Of a stretch of 64,000 nucleotides of DNA, positions 19,409 to 61,257 are shown piece by piece. The first letter of the stretch is position 1; the number at the start of each line of letters is the position of its first letter. The notes under the pieces were generated by a model, which saw nothing but the letters and a program-made list of their open reading frames with translations, did no database searches and was not told where the DNA came from. The stretch covers positions 298 through 64,297 of the forward strand of contig JBGQHJ010000004.1 in the NCBI GenBank assembly GCA_041497895.1, given 5' to 3'. Origin of the DNA: Candidatus Methylomirabilia bacterium. Lineage in GTDB: Bacteria; Methylomirabilota; Methylomirabilia; Rokubacteriales; CSP1-6. Made by a program: the position numbers and the translations under genes.

Positions 19409-19424
19409 TGCAACGCGAGTGCCA
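19409..19424 (-). promoter_or_regulatory. Sigma-54 promoter (-24/-12), perfect consensus, upstream of the hsp20-USP-CBS operon
   Basis: The minus strand reads TGGCAC-tcgcg-TTGCA. Predicted +1 is ~19398, 38 nt before the hsp20 ATG at 19360, with a GGAGG-rich leader. Confidence 0.75.
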
Positions 19425-19475
19425 CGAGAGACCCCCGTCGATTCGGGCAGTTACGGCCGGCGGCGGCGCGACCGC

Positions 19476-19493
19476 CGAGGCGGCCCCGCCTCG
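19476..19493. promoter_or_regulatory. Inverted repeat CGAGGCGG-cc-CCGCCTCG; candidate enhancer (UAS) for the hsp20 sigma-54 promoter
   Basis: 8-bp arms, 52-69 nt upstream of the -24 element. The arms resemble the TGAGGCGG/CCGCCTCA arms at 27557-27587 and 61149-61166. Confidence 0.3.
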
Positions 19494-19581
19494 CTGTGGC
19501 GACGGCGCCCCAGGACCTCTTGAAGCCACCCGGCCCTTGGCCCACAATGCAGGCGTTCATGATCCCGCGCGCCGAGGCCAC

Positions 19582-21747
19582 GTGACCAACTGGCTCGTCC
19601 GCCACCGGGTGGCCTTCGAGTTCGCGGTAGCCGCGGCCATCCTCGGCGCCATCGCGGTCGTGGCGATCGGCGCCCGCCACCTCGTCGAGCGGTACGAGGC
19701 GATCCGGCGCAGCACCGAGATCGTGGCCGAGCTCGACAGCATCCGCTCGGGAGTCACCGAGGCGGAGGCCGGCCAGCGCGGCTTCCTCCTGACCGGAGAC
19801 GAGCGCTACCTGGCGCCGTCCCCGATCGCTTCCGCCGACATCATCGAGACCCACCTGAACCGGCTCCGCGGCCTCGCCGTGGATCGCCCGGACATCGAGC
19901 GGCAGATCGCCCCCCTGGAGATCCCGCTGCGGGACAAGCTCGAGGAGCTGCGGGACACCATCCGCGTGCGGCGCGAGAACGGAACCGAGGCGGCTCTCCG
20001 GCTCGGCCTGACCGACCGTGGCCTCCGCGCCACCGAGCGGATCCGGTCGGTCCTCGGCGCGATGCGGGAACAGGAGCAGCAGCGGCTTGCCGAGGCGACC
20101 CGCCGGGCCGAGCAGGCGCGCCACGTGCTCATCATCCTGGCCGTGCTCGCCACCGCCGCCCTGCTGGTCCTGATCATCCTGCTCGCCGAGAGCCGGCAGC
20201 GCGCCGGCGAGCTCCGGCTGACCCGCGCGACCCTGCGGGAGCAGGTCGCCGAGCACGAGCAGACCACCTCGCTGCTCACCTCGCTCGTGCAGTCCTCCGA
20301 CGACTCCATCGTCGGCCTCGACCTCGAGGGGCGCATCCTCACGTGGAACCAGGGGGCCGAGCGGCTCTACGGCTATCAGGAGACCGAGGTGCAGGGCCGG
20401 CCGGTCGACGTGCTCCTGGCGGGCGAGCGGCGGGCCGAGATGGTGGCGGCCCTCGATCGGGTCCGGCGGCAGCAGACGACCGAGCGGTTCGAGACCGAGC
20501 ACGTCACCCGGGACGGCCGGCGGGTTCACGTCTTCCTCACCGTGTCTCCGATCCGGGACGCGCCCGACAAGCTGATCGGCGTCTCGATCGTGGGCCGCGA
20601 CATCGGCTTGCAGAAGGCGGCCGAGGAGGCCCTCCGCCGCAGCGAGGCGACCTCCCGCGCCTTCCTCGAGTCCGCCTCCGAGAGCATCGTGATCACCAAC
20701 GCGGCGGGCGCGATCGTGCGGGTCAACGACAAGGCGGAGAGGATGTTCGGCTACGAGCGCGCCGAGCTGATCGGCCAGCCGGTCGAGATCCTGATCCCAC
20801 GTCGCGCGCGGGCGGCGCACGTGGTCCACCGGGCCGGCTACATGGCCGCGCCCCACGTCCGCTCCATGGGACGGGGGCTCGACCTGGCCGGGGTCAAGAA
20901 GGACGGCAGCGAGTTCCCGGTGGAGGTCAGCCTGAGCTTCGTGGAGACCGACGACGGCATCCGGGCCATCGCTTTCGTCACCGACATCAGCGAGCGCCTG
21001 GCGTTCCAGCGCGCGGCCCGGCAGGCCGACAAGCTCGCCGCCCTCGGCACCCTCTCCGCGGGCATCGCGCACGAGATCAACAACCCCATCGGCATCATCA
21101 CCTCGCGCGTGGAGGTGATGCTGCTCGAGGCCGAGGGCGAGGAGCTGCCCGCCGAGATGCGCAAGGACCTCGAGGTGATCCTGCGCCACGCCCGGCGGGT
21201 GGCCTCGATCACGCAGGGCCTGCTGTCCTTCGCCCGTCAGTCCTCCGGGGTGCGCGCCCCGGTCAACCTGAACCGGGTCGTCGAGGAGATCCTGCAGCTC
21301 GTCAGGAAGGACATGGACCGGGCGCACGTGCAGGTGACCCTGCGACGGGACGAGCTCCTGCCCGAGATCATGGCCGACGCCAACGCGATCGGGCAGGTGC
21401 TGCTGAACCTGCTCACCAATGCCCGGCGGGCCATGCCGGACGAGGGCGGCGAGATCACCATCGAGACCGGCTACGATCCCGAGGCCCGCTCGGTCCGGCT
21501 GGTGGTCCGCGACACCGGGACCGGCATCGCGCCCGAGATTCTGCTCAAGATCTTCGACCCCTTCTTCACCACCAAGCCCGACGGCACCGGGCTCGGGCTC
21601 GCGGTCAGCCACGGCATCATCCACGATCACCAGGGCAGCGTGGACGTGGAGTCCCAGGTGGGCAAGGGCACCACGTTCACCGTGACCTTGCCGGTGGACG
21701 CCAGCCACGGCACCTTCGGCGCCGGGCCCTCGGCCCCGTCCCGATAG
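19582..21747 (+). CDS. Sensor histidine kinase: TM-CHASE3-TM, two PAS domains, HisKA, HATPase_c
   Basis: CHASE3-like region (EAEAGQRGFLLTGDERYL), PAS repeats (GRILTWNQGAERLYGY; GAIVRVNDKAERMFGY), H-box SAGIAHEINNP, G-boxes DTGTGI and GTGLGL. Start is uncertain: GTG 19582 is chosen, and the ORF is open from 19390. Confidence 0.85.
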   Translation: MTNWLVRHRVAFEFAVAAAILGAIAVVAIGARHLVERYEAIRRSTEIVAELDSIRSGVTEAEAGQRGFLLTGDERYLAPSPIASADIIETHLNRLRGLAVDRPDIERQIAPLEIPLRDKLEELRDTIRVRRENGTEAALRLGLTDRGLRATERIRSVLGAMREQEQQRLAEATRRAEQARHVLIILAVLATAALLVLIILLAESRQRAGELRLTRATLREQVAEHEQTTSLLTSLVQSSDDSIVGLDLEGRILTWNQGAERLYGYQETEVQGRPVDVLLAGERRAEMVAALDRVRRQQTTERFETEHVTRDGRRVHVFLTVSPIRDAPDKLIGVSIVGRDIGLQKAAEEALRRSEATSRAFLESASESIVITNAAGAIVRVNDKAERMFGYERAELIGQPVEILIPRRARAAHVVHRAGYMAAPHVRSMGRGLDLAGVKKDGSEFPVEVSLSFVETDDGIRAIAFVTDISERLAFQRAARQADKLAALGTLSAGIAHEINNPIGIITSRVEVMLLEAEGEELPAEMRKDLEVILRHARRVASITQGLLSFARQSSGVRAPVNLNRVVEEILQLVRKDMDRAHVQVTLRRDELLPEIMADANAIGQVLLNLLTNARRAMPDEGGEITIETGYDPEARSVRLVVRDTGTGIAPEILLKIFDPFFTTKPDGTGLGLAVSHGIIHDHQGSVDVESQVGKGTTFTVTLPVDASHGTFGAGPSAPSR

Positions 21748-21774
21748 CGGTGACCGGTCGCCCGCGGCGCGGGC

Positions 21775-23208
21775 TCAGTCCCGGTCCTCGCGCTTTGCGG
21801 TCTCGGCGCGCTCGCGATGGAGGCTGCGTGCGTGGAGCAGCAGGCCGAGCGCCAACCACAGCGCGATCACCGCCACCGGCACCGCGATCAGCCGCGGCCA
21901 GACGAGGCCGAGGAGGGCCAGCGCCACGAGCGCGACCCCGGCGCCGCCCATGATGCGCGCCTCGGCCGGACCCAGCGCGCGGCGCCCGGTCACCGCGGCA
22001 CTCACCGCGCTGCCGATGCTCACCGCCCCGGCGGCGGCCCGACCGGCGCTGCCTCGCCGCCGGGCCCGGCGGCGAGGCGAGGGCGCGGTCCGCACCACGC
22101 GCGAGCGCGCCGAGAGGGTGATCTCGGTGGCGCGCGTGAGGTCGTCGAGGTACATCCGCTCCATGGCCTGCGCGAAGCCTTCGTCCTCCACCGCCACGTC
22201 GAGCTCCCAGTTCCCGAACCAGGACTGCAGGTTCAGGTTGGTCGAGCCCACGCGGGCCCAGCGACCGTCCGCGACCGCGGTCTTGGCGTGCAGCATGGAT
22301 CCGTTCCACTCGTAGACGCGCACGCCCGCCTCGAGGAGCGGGCGATAGCCGGCCCGCGACAGGCCCCGCAGCAGCCAGATGTCGCTGGCGCCGGGCACCA
22401 GCAGGCGCACGTCGACGCCGTCGCGGGCCGCCGAGCTCAGGGCCTGCACATAGGTGGCCGTCCCGACGAAGTAGACGTCGGTGAGCCACAGCGTCCGCCG
22501 CGCCGCCGCCGCGATCAGCTGGTCCAGGCGGTACACCGCGGCGGTGCCCGGGGCGCTCGCGATCACCCGCATCGCCATGTGGCCGGCGGGCGCGGCGCGA
22601 TCACGGGCCAGCCGCGAGGTGCCGGGAGCCGGCGACCCGGCGGCCAGCGCCCACATCCGGGCGAACGCCTCCTCGAGCGCGGCCACCGCTGGCCCGCGCA
22701 CCGCCACGCCGGTGTCGCGCCATGGCTCGATCCCGCGCGCGGGATCGCCCACCCAGTGGCGGCCCACGCAGAGGCCGGTGACGAACGCGACCCGCCCGTC
22801 GACCGCGAGCATCTTCCGGTGATCGCGCGCCAGCCAGGCGAACGGGCTCGACAGGCCCGGCGGATTGAAGCCGCGCACCTCGACGCCCGCCGCGCGCAGG
22901 TCGCGCCAGAACCGCCGGCCGGTCTTGCCGACCGCGCCGAGCCAGTCGTAGATCACGCGCACGCGCACCCCCGAGCGGGCGCGCGCCGCGAGCGCGCGGG
23001 CGAACTCCTGTCCGGTCGCGTCGTCGTGGATGATGTAGCTCTCGAAGTGGATCGTGTGCTCCGCCGCCCGGATGGCCCCGAGCCACGCCGGGTAGTTCTG
23101 GCCCGCGTCCTTGAGCAGGCGCACCTCGTTGCCGGTGATGAGGGGTGCTCCCGACGCGCGGGCGAACGCTTGCTCGACGACCGGGAAGGTCTTCCGGGGC
23201 TCGTCCAC
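21775..23208 (-). CDS. Phospholipase D family protein / cardiolipin synthase-like
   Basis: 477 aa with two HKD motifs (HRKMLAVDG; HAKTAVADG) and C-terminal transmembrane helices. Confidence 0.9.
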
Positions 23209-23215
23209 GGGTCCG

Positions 23216-61003: not shown

Positions 61004-61045
61004 GGGAGGTCCTCCTTCCATCGACGCGGTCGAGTTCGTGCGATG

Positions 61046-61061
61046 TGCATCTGCCCTGCCA
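61046..61061 (-). promoter_or_regulatory. Sigma-54-like promoter upstream of the tandem CBS genes
   Basis: The minus strand reads TGGCAG-ggcag-ATGCA. Predicted +1 is ~61035, 32 nt before ATG 61003. Confidence 0.5.
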
Positions 61062-61073
61062 GGGTCGAGTGGT

Positions 61074-61087
61074 GGTGATCGATCACC
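61074..61087. promoter_or_regulatory. 14-bp perfect palindrome GGTGATCGATCACC just upstream of the 61046 promoter; possible regulator site
   Basis: Lies 13-26 nt upstream of the -24 element. Confidence 0.25.
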
Positions 61088-61148
61088 CTCGATCCAGGAC
61101 ATTAGCCTCCATCCACCGTTGCGCTCCGGCTCGGTACCCGGGGCATCG

Positions 61149-61166
61149 CCGCCTCAGCTGAGGCGG
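61149..61166. promoter_or_regulatory. 18-bp perfect palindrome CCGCCTCAGCTGAGGCGG; candidate bEBP enhancer between divergent sigma-54 promoters
   Basis: Its CYCAGCTGRG core ends 79 nt upstream of the plus-strand -24 element, the same distance as the 59461 palindrome. The sequence between the conserved blocks has diverged. Confidence 0.4.
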
Positions 61167-61241
61167 TAATCTCCCGCACCGCCGAGGGCTCGATGCCCCG
61201 CTCGAGGTCAGCCCGCGTGCCTTTGCAAGGACTTGAGCGGA

Positions 61242-61257
61242 GGGCACAAAGCTTGCT
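61242..61257 (+). promoter_or_regulatory. Sigma-54 promoter upstream of the small 2-TM protein / lipoprotein / MlaC-like operon
   Basis: GGGCAC-aaagc-TTGCT, preceded by ACTTGAGCG (61231-61239). Predicted +1 is ~61268. GGAGGAAG is followed by ATG 61286. Confidence 0.65.

Follow-up and report, generated by a model that had tools for sequence, protein, structure and literature searches.

The 64,000-nt stretch of DNA analysed here (the window) raises the question of how a long run of genes for stress, repair and energy salvage is read: whether motifs resembling the sigma-54 -24/-12 element are promoters, and whether they answer to one regulator. The locus is best explained as a ~48-kb island of such genes (roughly 13.0/14.4 to 62.5 kb) in an uncultured Rokubacteriales-like soil bacterium (phylum Methylomirabilota). 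We consider it probable, at about three chances in four, that the ~47 island genes, in 13 transcription units, are read from sigma-54 promoters with a common upstream activator site.

The window was scanned with an approximate sigma-54 weight matrix, based on the published consensus, at a threshold of 13 bits. The scan yielded 13 matches, whereas Markov-1 simulations averaged 1.03 and never exceeded 4, and these are the same 13 motifs, in position and strand, that the original prediction had listed. Its count of seven exact GGCAC-N5-TTGC cores was likewise reproduced (0.51 expected; seven reached in none of 100 shuffles). The putative promoters are:

19409..19424, minus strand, -24/-12 promoter TGGCACTCGCGTTGCA of the Hsp20_a operon, 19.3 bits
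25965..25980, minus, TGGCACTCACGTTGCA, DksA-like/cytochrome c/PFK operon, 19.3 bits
27460..27475, minus, TGGCACTCGGAATGCA, repeat protein/DUF2267/CBS operon, 16.5 bits
34788..34803, minus, TGGCACCCCGGTTGCA, YgaP/HlyD/AcrB/DUF302/YgaP/archease/RtcB operon, 17.9 bits
39192..39207, minus, TGGCACTAGGATTGCT, HAD-ATPase fusion and P-type ATPase, 18.7 bits
39352..39367, plus, GGGCACCACGCTTGCA, OmpA/GluDH/DUF3300/DUF2950/OPT, 13.8 bits
51736..51751, minus, TGGCACTCACGATGCA, Hsp20_b/PCMT/Usp/ABC-MacB/PEP synthase/cytochrome c operon, 16.5 bits
51882..51897, plus, weaker, CGGCATCTGCCTTGCA, CBS/acyl-AMP ligase-acyltransferase/DUF308, 13.5 bits
57893..57908, minus, weaker, TGGCAGGCCGGATGCA, CBS_e and 66-aa ORF, 13.6 bits
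59393..59408, minus, TGGCAGTCGAGTTGCA, malic enzyme gene, 16.5 bits
59553..59568, plus, AGGCACGGGGTTTGCT, 103-aa membrane protein, 15.8 bits
61046..61061, minus, weaker, TGGCAGGGCAGATGCA, CBS_g (and CBS_f), 13.6 bits
61242..61257, plus, GGGCACAAAGCTTGCT, 102-aa membrane protein, 86-aa lipoprotein-like ORF and MlaC, 14.5 bits

Non-coding DNA, as delimited by a GC3-based gene map, makes up 3,615 nt (5.6%) of the window and contains all 13 sites (binomial p ~6e-17); the top coding match, 26995(+), scores 12.7 bits and lacks the GG. Each site has the exact spacing and faces the adjacent gene, as had been claimed, with a start codon 13-58 nt downstream, usually preceded by a Shine-Dalgarno sequence (ATG and RBS 48, 39 and 28 nt downstream of the 19409, 25965 and 61242 motifs, respectively; a gap of only 14 nt at 39192). 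The 59393 motif falls inside the longest malic-enzyme ORF, the RBS-preceded starts of which lie 3' of the motif. The remaining intergenic regions score at most 5.6 bits, except for the 11418/11478 region and a possible weak overlapping divergent pair between Usp_e and a CarS-like gene, below threshold at 11.4 and 10.7 bits and not claimed as promoters:

56414..56441, 56414(+) TGGCTCATGGAGTGCA and 56426(-) CGGCATCGCCCATGCA

The intergenic regions from 44 to 62 kb yielded no sigma-70-like promoter. A loose pattern allowing up to two mismatches gave 21 matches in the window against 15 expected, which is not significant by itself; the weakest sites, 51882, 57893 and 61046, with cores TGGCAG or CGGCAT, and ATGC, therefore rest on context and conservation. 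The analysis supports the view that the 13 sites behave as real sigma-54 promoters in all features open to sequence analysis.

Together, these sites cover 47 genes in 13 units by our count (about 45 in 12-13 had been proposed):

TU1, 14432..19360, minus strand, Hsp20, Usp, CBS, ADP-forming acetyl-CoA synthetase, Usp, Usp, CBS (gene map and Pfam)
TU2, 24130..25925, minus, DksA-like, cytochrome c, phosphofructokinase
TU3, 26119..27424, minus, secreted repeat protein, DUF2267, CBS
TU4, 27585..34729, minus, YgaP-like, HlyD, AcrB, DUF302, YgaP-like, archease, RtcB
TU5, 34915..39177, minus, HAD phosphatase-ATPase fusion, P-type cation ATPase
TU6, 39381..45196, plus, OmpA-like, Glu/Leu dehydrogenase, DUF3300, DUF2950, OPT transporter
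TU7, 45193..51682, minus, Hsp20, PCMT, Usp, 73-aa Cys-rich ORF, ABC ATPase, MacB permease, PEP synthase, cytochrome c
TU8, 51939..55785, plus, CBS, ACP-fatty acyl-AMP ligase-acyltransferase fusion, DUF308
TU9, 57116..57862, minus, CBS, 66-aa basic ORF
TU10, 58012..59373, minus, malic enzyme
TU11, 59590..59901, plus, 103-aa two-TM protein of no family, paralogous to the gene at 61286 (family D2)
TU12, 59925..61003, minus, CBS_g, CBS_f
TU13, 61286..62477, plus, 102-aa paralogue of the TU11 protein, 86-aa ORF, MlaC-like

The statement that sites head almost every operon holds for these 13 units but not for the histidine kinase (HK), PLD and FNT genes, for which the window scan found no sigma-54 site. 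In the first 19 kb, described as housekeeping DNA lacking a good match, the intergenic regions indeed reach only 9.7 and 8.9 bits (at 11418/11478), but the 13-19 kb segment holds no housekeeping genes; the operon read leftwards from 19409(-) occupies it. The island thus begins near 13-14 kb rather than at 19 kb, and TU1 may extend to 13045 via an F420H2-quinone reductase and pirin.

Putative activator sites precede most of the promoters. They are 20-bp palindromes, CTGRGG-N8-CCYCAG, present singly or as two abutting copies, with centres 52-92 nt upstream of the -24 GG (about -75 to -115 relative to the start site):

19475..19513, tandem, 19409 promoter, 9/12 and 11/12 half-site positions, centres 62 and 81 nt from the GG
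26031..26070, one or more copies, 25965 promoter, 11/12, centre 62 nt from the GG
27536..27575, palindromes, 27460 promoter, matrix match at 27556, kept in L087 and L092
34856..34895, tandem, 34788 promoter, 12/12 and 9/12, centres 64 and 84 nt from the GG, kept in L087
51803..51841, tandem, common to divergent 51736(-) and 51882(+), 10/12 and 11/12
57969..58008, tandem, 57893 promoter, 10/12 and 12/12, centres 72 and 92 nt from the GG
59449..59488, tandem, common to 59393(-) and 59553(+), 10/12 and 11/12
61138..61177, tandem, common to 61046(-) and 61242(+), 11/12 and 9/12

The palindrome, rich in G and C, is poorly informative against a genome background of 72% GC: at 10/12 positions, the window holds 25 copies versus 24 by chance. 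At 11/12 or better, there are nine sites versus 1.8 expected, seven of the nine intergenic, and an iterated palindrome matrix gave 11 matches, 9 of them in intergenic regions with a sigma-54 site. The distances from palindrome centre to GG (52, 62, 62, 63, 64, 72, 92 and 88 nt) fall in steps of ~10 nt. In L001, L003, L097 and L098, more distant relatives outside the definition of the palindrome motif, 10 of 17 sigma-54 matches have a palindrome 45-115 nt upstream, compared with 1.9% of random positions (p ~1e-13); L097 carries perfect CTGGGG-N8-CCCCAG copies.

Between palindrome and promoter, an element resembling the IHF consensus (WATCAR-N4-TTR) at 7/9 positions or better accompanies 8 of the 13 promoters, compared with 8% of random 70-mers. 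Seven of these elements share one orientation and keep a set distance, lying 29-43 nt upstream of TGGCAC:

19441..19453, minus strand, IHF-like TAACTGCCCGAAT, 7/9, 29 nt upstream, flanks invariant in A1
25997..26009, minus, CAACGTCCTGATT, 9/9, perfect reverse complement of the consensus, 29 nt upstream, kept in A2
27502..27514, minus, CAACGTCCCGTTT, 7/9, 39 nt upstream
34821..34833, minus, CAAGTCTCGGATT, 8/9, 30 nt upstream
51768..51780, minus, CAAGCGGTTGAAT, 8/9, 29 nt upstream, with CAACCAGCTGAAT at the same position in L001
57935..57947, minus, TAACATCCCGGTT, 7/9, 39 nt upstream
61092..61104, minus, TAATGTCCTGGAT, 7/9, 43 nt upstream

Most promoters possess the classical three-part sigma-54 control region of palindromes, IHF-like element and -24/-12 element; the weaker 57893 promoter has both upstream components.

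All three parts are invariant in alignments A1 (four relatives, at 19409) and A2 (at 25965) of soil relatives, where the 5' leaders vary and carry indels; within the 19475..19513 palindromes, the arms are invariant in A1 and the spacer varies. Despite gene rearrangement, sigma-54 sites are kept 5' of orthologous genes in L001, L003, L087-L092 and L095-L099, relatives at 55-95% amino-acid identity. The 27460 site is nearer consensus in L087 and L092 than in the window, and L092 lacks exactly 10 nt between the counterpart of the 27502..27514 element and the -24 element. In L087, the counterpart of the 34788 promoter region lies directly 5' of DUF302-archease-RtcB. The 39192 site is kept in L003, L095, L098 and L099, and orthologous sites were found for 39352 (L095 9815(-)), 51736 (L001 9346(-)), 51882 (L001 9494(+) and L003 6101(+)) and 61046 (L001 22430(-), TGGCAGGCGGGTTGCA). 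The L001 counterpart of the 51803..51841 palindromes retains the half-sites with altered spacers. Conservation, the IHF-like element and the helically phased palindromes further back the sigma-54 reading.

The common upstream site points to a single regulator of a dormancy-type programme. More than one activator may be involved, because two promoter regions (39178-39381 and 56330-56563) have no good palindrome copy. Across the window and the loci of close relatives examined, there is neither rpoN nor a gene for a Sigma54_activat/GAFTGA protein; we therefore assume the sigma factor and activator and infer RpoN dependence. Under single-activator control, every promoter would carry RNA polymerase with sigma-54 waiting in a closed complex, and an NtrC-family enhancer-binding protein, encoded elsewhere, would bind the common palindromes and be carried to the polymerase by a bend at the IHF-like element. 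ATP hydrolysis would then open all 13 promoters together; in the divergent intergenic regions, the single palindrome pair, which sits between both promoters, would serve both.

A candidate oxygen sensor of the regulon is encoded divergently from the Hsp20_a operon, an adjacency kept in L087-L092:

19537..21747, plus strand, sensor histidine kinase with CHASE3, two PAS, HisKA and HATPase domains (Pfam)

The heme-PAS domains of FixL and DosP align with the second of its PAS domains, which retains the proximal His, and the transmitter best matches the AtoS/ZraS models. The partner proteins of AtoS and ZraS are sigma-54 activators. Since this FixL-like kinase adjoins the island, low oxygen is a plausible signal; the likeliest input would be low oxygen or energy depletion, sensed by the kinase, which would phosphorylate the activator. 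Alignment and adjacency are the basis on which heme binding and the link to the regulon are suggested.

The control of the island is a further case of a known type, not a new mechanism. The promoter density, initially considered unusually concentrated, has a textbook precedent in the Klebsiella nif cluster, with ~8 sigma-54 promoters in 24 kb, the layout of which is one of the two best analogues. The covered genes include those for Hsp20, Usp, CBS, ADP-forming acetyl-CoA synthetase, PFK, PEP synthase, RtcB/archease, PCMT and P-type ATPase, and the gene content parallels hypoxia and dormancy regulons. Published comparators for this gene content are the lxa locus (PMC3721108) and the Myxococcus NmpR hypoxia regulon (PMC11841059), the other best analogue.

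Each of the 13 -24/-12 motifs of the original prediction was found again in the window. They are listed here with the one neighboring gene that bears on their control; the suffixes of Hsp20_a, Hsp20_b, CBS_d and CBS_g tell paralogs apart.

19409 (-), sigma-54 site, unit of Hsp20_a
25965 (-), sigma-54 site
27460 (-), sigma-54 site
34788 (-), sigma-54 site, seven-gene unit with RtcB as its last gene
39192 (-), sigma-54 site
39352 (+), sigma-54 site
51736 (-), sigma-54 site, unit of Hsp20_b
51882 (+), sigma-54 site, CBS_d
57893 (-), sigma-54 site
59393 (-), sigma-54 site
59553 (+), sigma-54 site
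61046 (-), sigma-54 site, CBS_g
61242 (+), sigma-54 site
19537-21747, sensor histidine kinase gene (HK), divergent from the Hsp20_a operon

A sigma-54 weight matrix that approximates the published consensus yielded 13 matches at a cut-off of 13 bits, identical to these sites (13.5-19.3 bits); Markov-1 simulations averaged 1.03 such matches and never exceeded 4. The exact core GGCAC-N5-TTGC occurs seven times, as had been counted, with 0.51 expected, and the GG-to-GC distance within TGGCAC-N5-TTGCW is exactly 10 nt, as is characteristic of the sigma-54 class. All 13 sites fall in non-coding DNA, which amounts to 3,615 nt or 5.6% of the window (binomial p ~6e-17); the top coding match, at 26995(+), reached 12.7 bits and lacks the GG. 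Orientation toward the adjacent gene holds throughout, each site facing a start codon 13-58 nt past the motif, mostly with a Shine-Dalgarno sequence. The loose pattern (two mismatches at most) gave 21 matches against 15 expected, which is non-significant by itself, so that the three weakest sites depend on their context. Thus, the sigma-54 promoter observation is confirmed and the interpretation first placed on it is supported.

Intergenic regions without a listed site scored at most 5.6 bits, except for two weak matches near 11.4 kb and the pair 56414(+)/56426(-). The latter (56414-56441; 11.4 and 10.7 bits) consists of two overlapping -24/-12-like elements in opposite orientation between Usp_e and a CarS-like gene. 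No sigma-70-like promoters or intrinsic terminators were detected above chance in the intergenic regions from 44 to 62 kb, and an Rfam search of the leaders produced no match at the gathering threshold. In the region 39178-39381, the start codons GTG 39177(-) and ATG 39381(+) lie only 13-14 nt past the -12 elements of the divergent promoters, which would leave the mRNAs with little or no leader. The HAD-ATPase gene is preceded by an equally short gap, unusual for sigma-54 promoters, in three related loci (L003, L095 and L098).

Genes were mapped by their third-position GC content and annotated using Pfam and NCBIfam; at the 72% G+C of the window, long spurious open reading frames are common. 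A coherent gene set, denoted here the island, spans about 13-14 kb to 62.5 kb. By our count, the 13 sites head 13 units with 47 genes in total, close to the predicted 45 or so genes in 12-13 units. A site had been assigned to almost every operon; this stands for the 13 units and fails for the HK, PLD and FNT genes, which have none. The first 19 kb had been considered housekeeping, but the segment from 13 to 19 kb belongs to the island because the 19409(-) unit extends leftwards to at least 14432.

The island encodes two Hsp20, six universal stress proteins (Usp) and eight CBS-pair proteins, together with metabolic enzymes (ADP-forming acetyl-CoA synthetase, phosphofructokinase, PEP synthase, malic enzyme and a Glu/Leu-type dehydrogenase), a P-type cation ATPase with an HAD-ATPase fusion, as well as an RND pump and an ABC exporter of the MacB type. 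Repair functions include RtcB with archease for RNA and protein-isoaspartate methyltransferase (PCMT) for proteins; rtcB, as the last gene in the unit of 34788(-), is located behind a sigma-54 promoter. The remaining genes encode a DksA-like protein, two small cytochromes c, an acyl-AMP ligase/acyltransferase fusion and several small proteins without a family. Among the latter, the genes at 59590-59901 and 61286-61594 encode paralogous proteins of ~100 aa that match no family and are predicted to span the membrane twice; a sigma-54 promoter of its own precedes each gene and has upstream sites in common with the divergent partner promoter. A 73-aa protein of the Hsp20_b operon (49901-50122(-)), also family-less, is zinc-ribbon-like, with CPEC, CPCG and CDHC motifs, and is 83% identical in L001, a syntenic locus. 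The first gene of another sigma-54 unit (26942-27424(-)) encodes a 160-aa protein with a signal peptide and eight tandem 24-nt repeats (27030-27272) that correspond to QQDIQAPR units; judging from the different aligned lengths in two related loci (L087 and L092), the repeat number seems to vary.

The most far-reaching interpretation, to which we assign a probability of roughly 0.4, is that Rokubacteriales devote sigma-54 to a single dormancy/low-oxygen regulon, in which a FixL-type kinase would act through one putative NtrC-family activator, bound to CTGGGG-N8-CCCCAG, on at least 13 promoters and about 47 genes. If so, chaperoning, repair of protein, RNA and DNA, and substrate-level ATP salvage would be fired at once, and this would be the first regulon defined for the Rokubacteriales lineage.

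When the upstream regions were read by eye, a 20-bp palindrome, CTGRGG-N8-CCYCAG, became apparent, mostly in two abutting copies. This putative activator site is present in 8 of 10 promoter regions, the other two having no good copy. Palindromes with at least 11 of 12 matching half-site positions number nine in the window compared with 1.8 expected, seven of the nine being intergenic, and an iterated palindrome matrix gave 11 matches, nine of these in intergenic regions with a sigma-54 site. At a threshold of 10 of 12 positions, the window has no more palindromes than chance predicts, so that weight can be given to the best copies only. The center of the proximal palindrome is 62, 62, 92, 64, 63, 72, 52 or 88 nt away from the -24 GG, that is, in steps of about 10 nt, which points to helical phasing. 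Outside the window, 10 of 17 sigma-54 matches in four related loci (L001, L003, L097 and L098) are accompanied by a palindrome (at least 10 of 12 matches) 45-115 nt upstream, in the same distance classes, compared with 1.9% of random positions (p ~1e-13). In L001, the half-sites are conserved and the spacers changed.

Between palindrome and promoter, seven promoters contain an IHF-like element, always in one orientation, whose sequence is akin to WATCAR-N4-TTR read in reverse complement (one perfect, the others 7-8 of 9 positions); its distance upstream of TGGCAC is 29-30 or 39-43 nt. Scores of at least 7 of 9 were obtained for 8 of 13 promoters and for 8% of random 70-mers. An alignment of L092 (16815-17190) with the window (27425-27584) revealed an exact 10-nt deletion between the IHF-like and -24 elements; this deletion and the spacing classes of 29-30 and 39 nt in the window are consistent with a face-of-helix constraint.

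These upstream elements also bear on the alternative that the promoters are true sigma-54 promoters served by several different enhancer-binding proteins, the palindromes being hairpins, repressor operators or compositional noise and the island a patchwork rather than one regulon. Such a patchwork would accommodate the two regions without a good palindrome, the chance frequency at 10 of 12 matches, the co-directional palindromes in positions suitable for a hairpin that terminates the upstream gene, and an FNR-like box present solely in a palindrome-less region. We nevertheless consider it unlikely, given that the best palindromes concentrate in intergenic regions with a sigma-54 site, that their arms are conserved and their spacers variable, and that the pairing with promoters holds out of sample. 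Terminators of upstream genes, in particular, were rejected as a general explanation because the palindromes are found in divergent regions too, which require no terminator, and because they are helically phased with the -24 element. The FNR/Anr-like box itself (39233-39246, TGGATGGCGATCAT) is the sole intergenic one and lies in the one strong promoter region without a good palindrome; it may reflect chance or a second input.

For a single regulon, the kinase gene HK provides a candidate sensor. The protein consists of a CHASE3 domain, two PAS domains and a transmitter; the second PAS aligns to the heme-PAS domains of FixL and DosP across the heme pocket, with the proximal His conserved, and the transmitter scored best against the AtoS and ZraS models. 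The partners of AtoS and ZraS are sigma-54 activators. The position of HK next to the island is conserved in relatives. From the FixL-like PAS, the AtoS/ZraS-like transmitter and this conserved adjacency, we infer that low oxygen would be the preferred signal. There is no response regulator gene adjacent to HK, and putative activator sites (19475-19513) lie about 25-60 nt before its start codon.

Scans for GAFTGA, Walker-A and RpoN-box signatures detected neither rpoN nor an activator gene in the window or in 103 loci, and the left and right flanks of the window in its own genome likewise yielded neither. No activator was found in the metagenome loci of HK relatives or in five neighborhoods of HAD-ATPase homologs (on contigs of at most 142 kb). 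Signatures of bEBPs were confined to three distant loci (L046, L052 and L056), and none was detected near the island in a close relative. The absence of rpoN from the scanned sequences, along with a literature search that retrieved no publication dealing with sigma-54 in either Rokubacteria or Methylomirabilota, would fit a lineage without sigma-54 in which TGGCAC-N5-TTGCA is the site of another transcription factor or alternative sigma factor and its likeness to the consensus is coincidental. This appears highly improbable because the motif is asymmetric, agrees with the sigma-54 consensus in its exact spacing and at all informative positions, stands at a fixed short distance before start codons and is preceded, in the classical arrangement, by palindromes and an IHF-like element. 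Furthermore, the neighboring kinase resembles partners of sigma-54 activators, and Rokubacterial genomes are reported to carry NtrB-, ZraS- and AtoS-type sensors (PMC5712423).

Comparison with relatives showed that the wiring is conserved within the lineage. Homologs of the HAD-ATPase with 74-76% identity are named Candidatus Rokuibacteriota, and those with 62% Methylomirabilota, in agreement with the best genome matches. In soil metagenome contigs (75-95% protein identity), sites are retained before Hsp20_a, the DksA-like gene, the repeat protein and DUF302; L001 (about 76-87% identity) retains the divergent pair before Hsp20_b and CBS_d and the CBS_g site, and L003, from a Methylomirabilota metagenome-assembled genome (MAG; 55-62% identity), has sites before the HAD-ATPase, CBS_d and a Usp gene despite a different gene order. 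Sigma-54 sites also precede orthologs in L095, L097, L098 and L099. The more distant holders of the acyl-AMP ligase gene, in Acidobacteria and Proteobacteria, showed no sigma-54 sites, so this wiring is lineage-specific. In alignments of the 19409 and 25965 promoter regions with soil relatives, the palindromes, the IHF-like element and the -24/-12 elements are invariant, and the 5' leaders are variable with indels. A chance or compositional artifact of GC-rich intergenic DNA, or a dispersed repeat bearing the motif, has a negligible probability: although the loose pattern is not enriched, strict matches are strongly so, shuffles, simulations and the intergenic restriction rule out chance, the repeats are coding paralogs only (Hsp20 a/b and the 103- and 102-aa proteins), with promoter flanks unrelated except for one paralogous gene pair, and orthologous sites persist in relatives where the adjoining leaders have diverged.

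The relatives provided several further observations. L087 (15850-16100, aligned with window 34730-34914) lacks YgaP-HlyD-AcrB and has the same promoter region directly before DUF302-archease-RtcB; hence, the pump genes were inserted or lost just 3' of the promoter. In L001 (14030-19819(-)), a sigma-54 site heads the unit Usp-Usp-Usp-PolX (pol beta/PHP)-NAD-dependent DNA ligase-CBS, which would add DNA repair to the repair of RNA (RtcB) and protein (PCMT) in the regulon. This contig (DATIWG010000050.1; 70% G+C, syntenic with the window) is labeled Nitrosotalea sp., a low-GC archaeon, and the protein P0072 is labeled Bathyarchaeia; both probably represent Rokubacteria contigs that were mis-binned in MAG catalogs.

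In the single regulon as we envisage it, closed sigma-54 holoenzyme would sit at -24/-12, an NtrC-family activator would occupy the paired palindromes at about -75 to -115, and a DNA bend between palindromes and promoter would join activator to polymerase, with one palindrome pair serving both divergent promoters. That the palindrome is common to the promoters argues for one activator. A sigma-54 promoter stays off unless an activator acts on it; because the 47 maintenance genes lie wholly behind such promoters, this suggests that the island is an all-or-none survival programme.

Rokubacteriales are abundant soil bacteria with large genomes and small cells that have been suggested to be dormant, and we know of no cultured member of the Rokubacteria. 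Rokubacteria genomes are reported to be 6-8 Mb in size with 64-71% G+C; dormancy has only been speculated, and their persistence in soil is unexplained (PMC5712423). The main value of the island is access to the survival physiology of an uncultured soil lineage. The handles gained are the promoter architecture, a candidate activator motif with which MAGs can be scanned for the regulon and its regulator, and a candidate oxygen-sensing kinase, and the island genes could serve as induction markers in soil metatranscriptomes.

The island appears to work by an already known kind of control, the enhancer-dependent sigma-54 layout, for which the nif cluster is the closest parallel in arrangement. In Klebsiella and other diazotrophs, adjacent nif operons each have a -24/-12 promoter, an IHF site and an activator palindrome ~80-130 nt upstream; one enhancer-binding protein, NifA, serves them all, and divergent promoters have upstream sites in common. 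Layout and density, about one sigma-54 promoter per 3 kb, are comparable, so the concentration of sites, first described as unusual, is not unprecedented. The differences are that the island consists of stress, repair and energy-salvage genes instead of nitrogenase genes, that the upstream motif is CTGRGG-N8-CCYCAG and not TGT-N10-ACA, that the activator gene lies outside the island, and that the lineage is Rokubacteriales.

In signal and targets, the closest system is NmpRSTU of Myxococcus xanthus, where sigma-54 and the NtrC-like activator NmpR respond to low oxygen via a heme-dependent kinase, with a CBS-domain protein, a universal stress protein and a P-type ATPase among the targets and paired palindromic sites upstream of intergenic sigma-54 promoters (PMC11841059). 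The eight CBS, six Usp, one P-type ATPase and FixL-like PAS kinase here are a likeness in content only: the NmpR box GCGCA-N5-TGCGC (one mismatch at most) had nine matches in the window against 13 expected, all coding and none in island intergenic regions. Moreover, the kinase combines CHASE3 with a FixL-type PAS whereas the NmpR system has a protoglobin domain, the island with ~47 genes in one cluster is about twice as large as the 23-gene NmpR regulon, and it has no cbb3 oxidase, hemN or hemerythrin genes.

The lxa locus of Burkholderia cenocepacia comprises ~50 genes for survival without growth, with one motif at 17 intergenic points (PMC3721108). It resembles the island in its universal stress proteins, cation ATPase, ABC transporters, metabolic enzymes and recurring intergenic motif, but that motif is an Anr/FNR-like box, TGA-N6-TCA, presumably acting with sigma-70, in contrast to the sigma-54 promoters and different palindrome here. 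A search of the window for FNR/Anr boxes (TTGAT-N4-ATCAA / TGA-N6-TCA, two mismatches at most) gave 10 matches, of which only one, the weak box at 39233, is intergenic. DosR of Mycobacterium tuberculosis is a LuxR-type regulator of sigma-70-family promoters with a heme-based kinase as sensor, in actinobacteria, which lack sigma-54. Hsp20/alpha-crystallin, several Usp, CBS, phosphofructokinase, P-type ATPase and acyltransferase genes occur in both systems, and the window contains no match to the DosR box (GGGACT-N2-AGTCCC core, two mismatches at most); if the single-regulon reading is true, the island would be a functional counterpart of DosR on different transcription machinery. In Escherichia coli, RtcR-rtcBA, PspF-psp and ibpB are single sigma-54 operons that each have a dedicated activator, and the RtcR gene is divergently oriented. 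RtcB and a small heat-shock protein stand behind sigma-54 promoters in both cases, but rtcB here ends a seven-gene unit without an adjacent RtcR-like gene (no frame of the window contains a GAFTGA or Walker-A activator signature, and thus no divergent RtcR with CARF and activator domains), and the motif upstream of its unit recurs in seven other intergenic control regions (10 other promoters).

A precedent for placing such genes under sigma-54 is the enrichment of Usp and CBS found in Planctomycetia by a survey of predicted sigma-54 regulons (PMC12316311). Beyond the original prediction, the analysis adds a candidate activator motif, the IHF-like element, the apparent helical phasing, conservation across species and a candidate sensor. 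The Usp/Hsp20/CBS/PFK/ATPase low-oxygen set recurs under DosR in mycobacteria and Anr in Burkholderia, with a smaller NmpR regulon in Myxococcus, and sigma-54 with an enhancer-binding protein would be a third regulatory solution for it.
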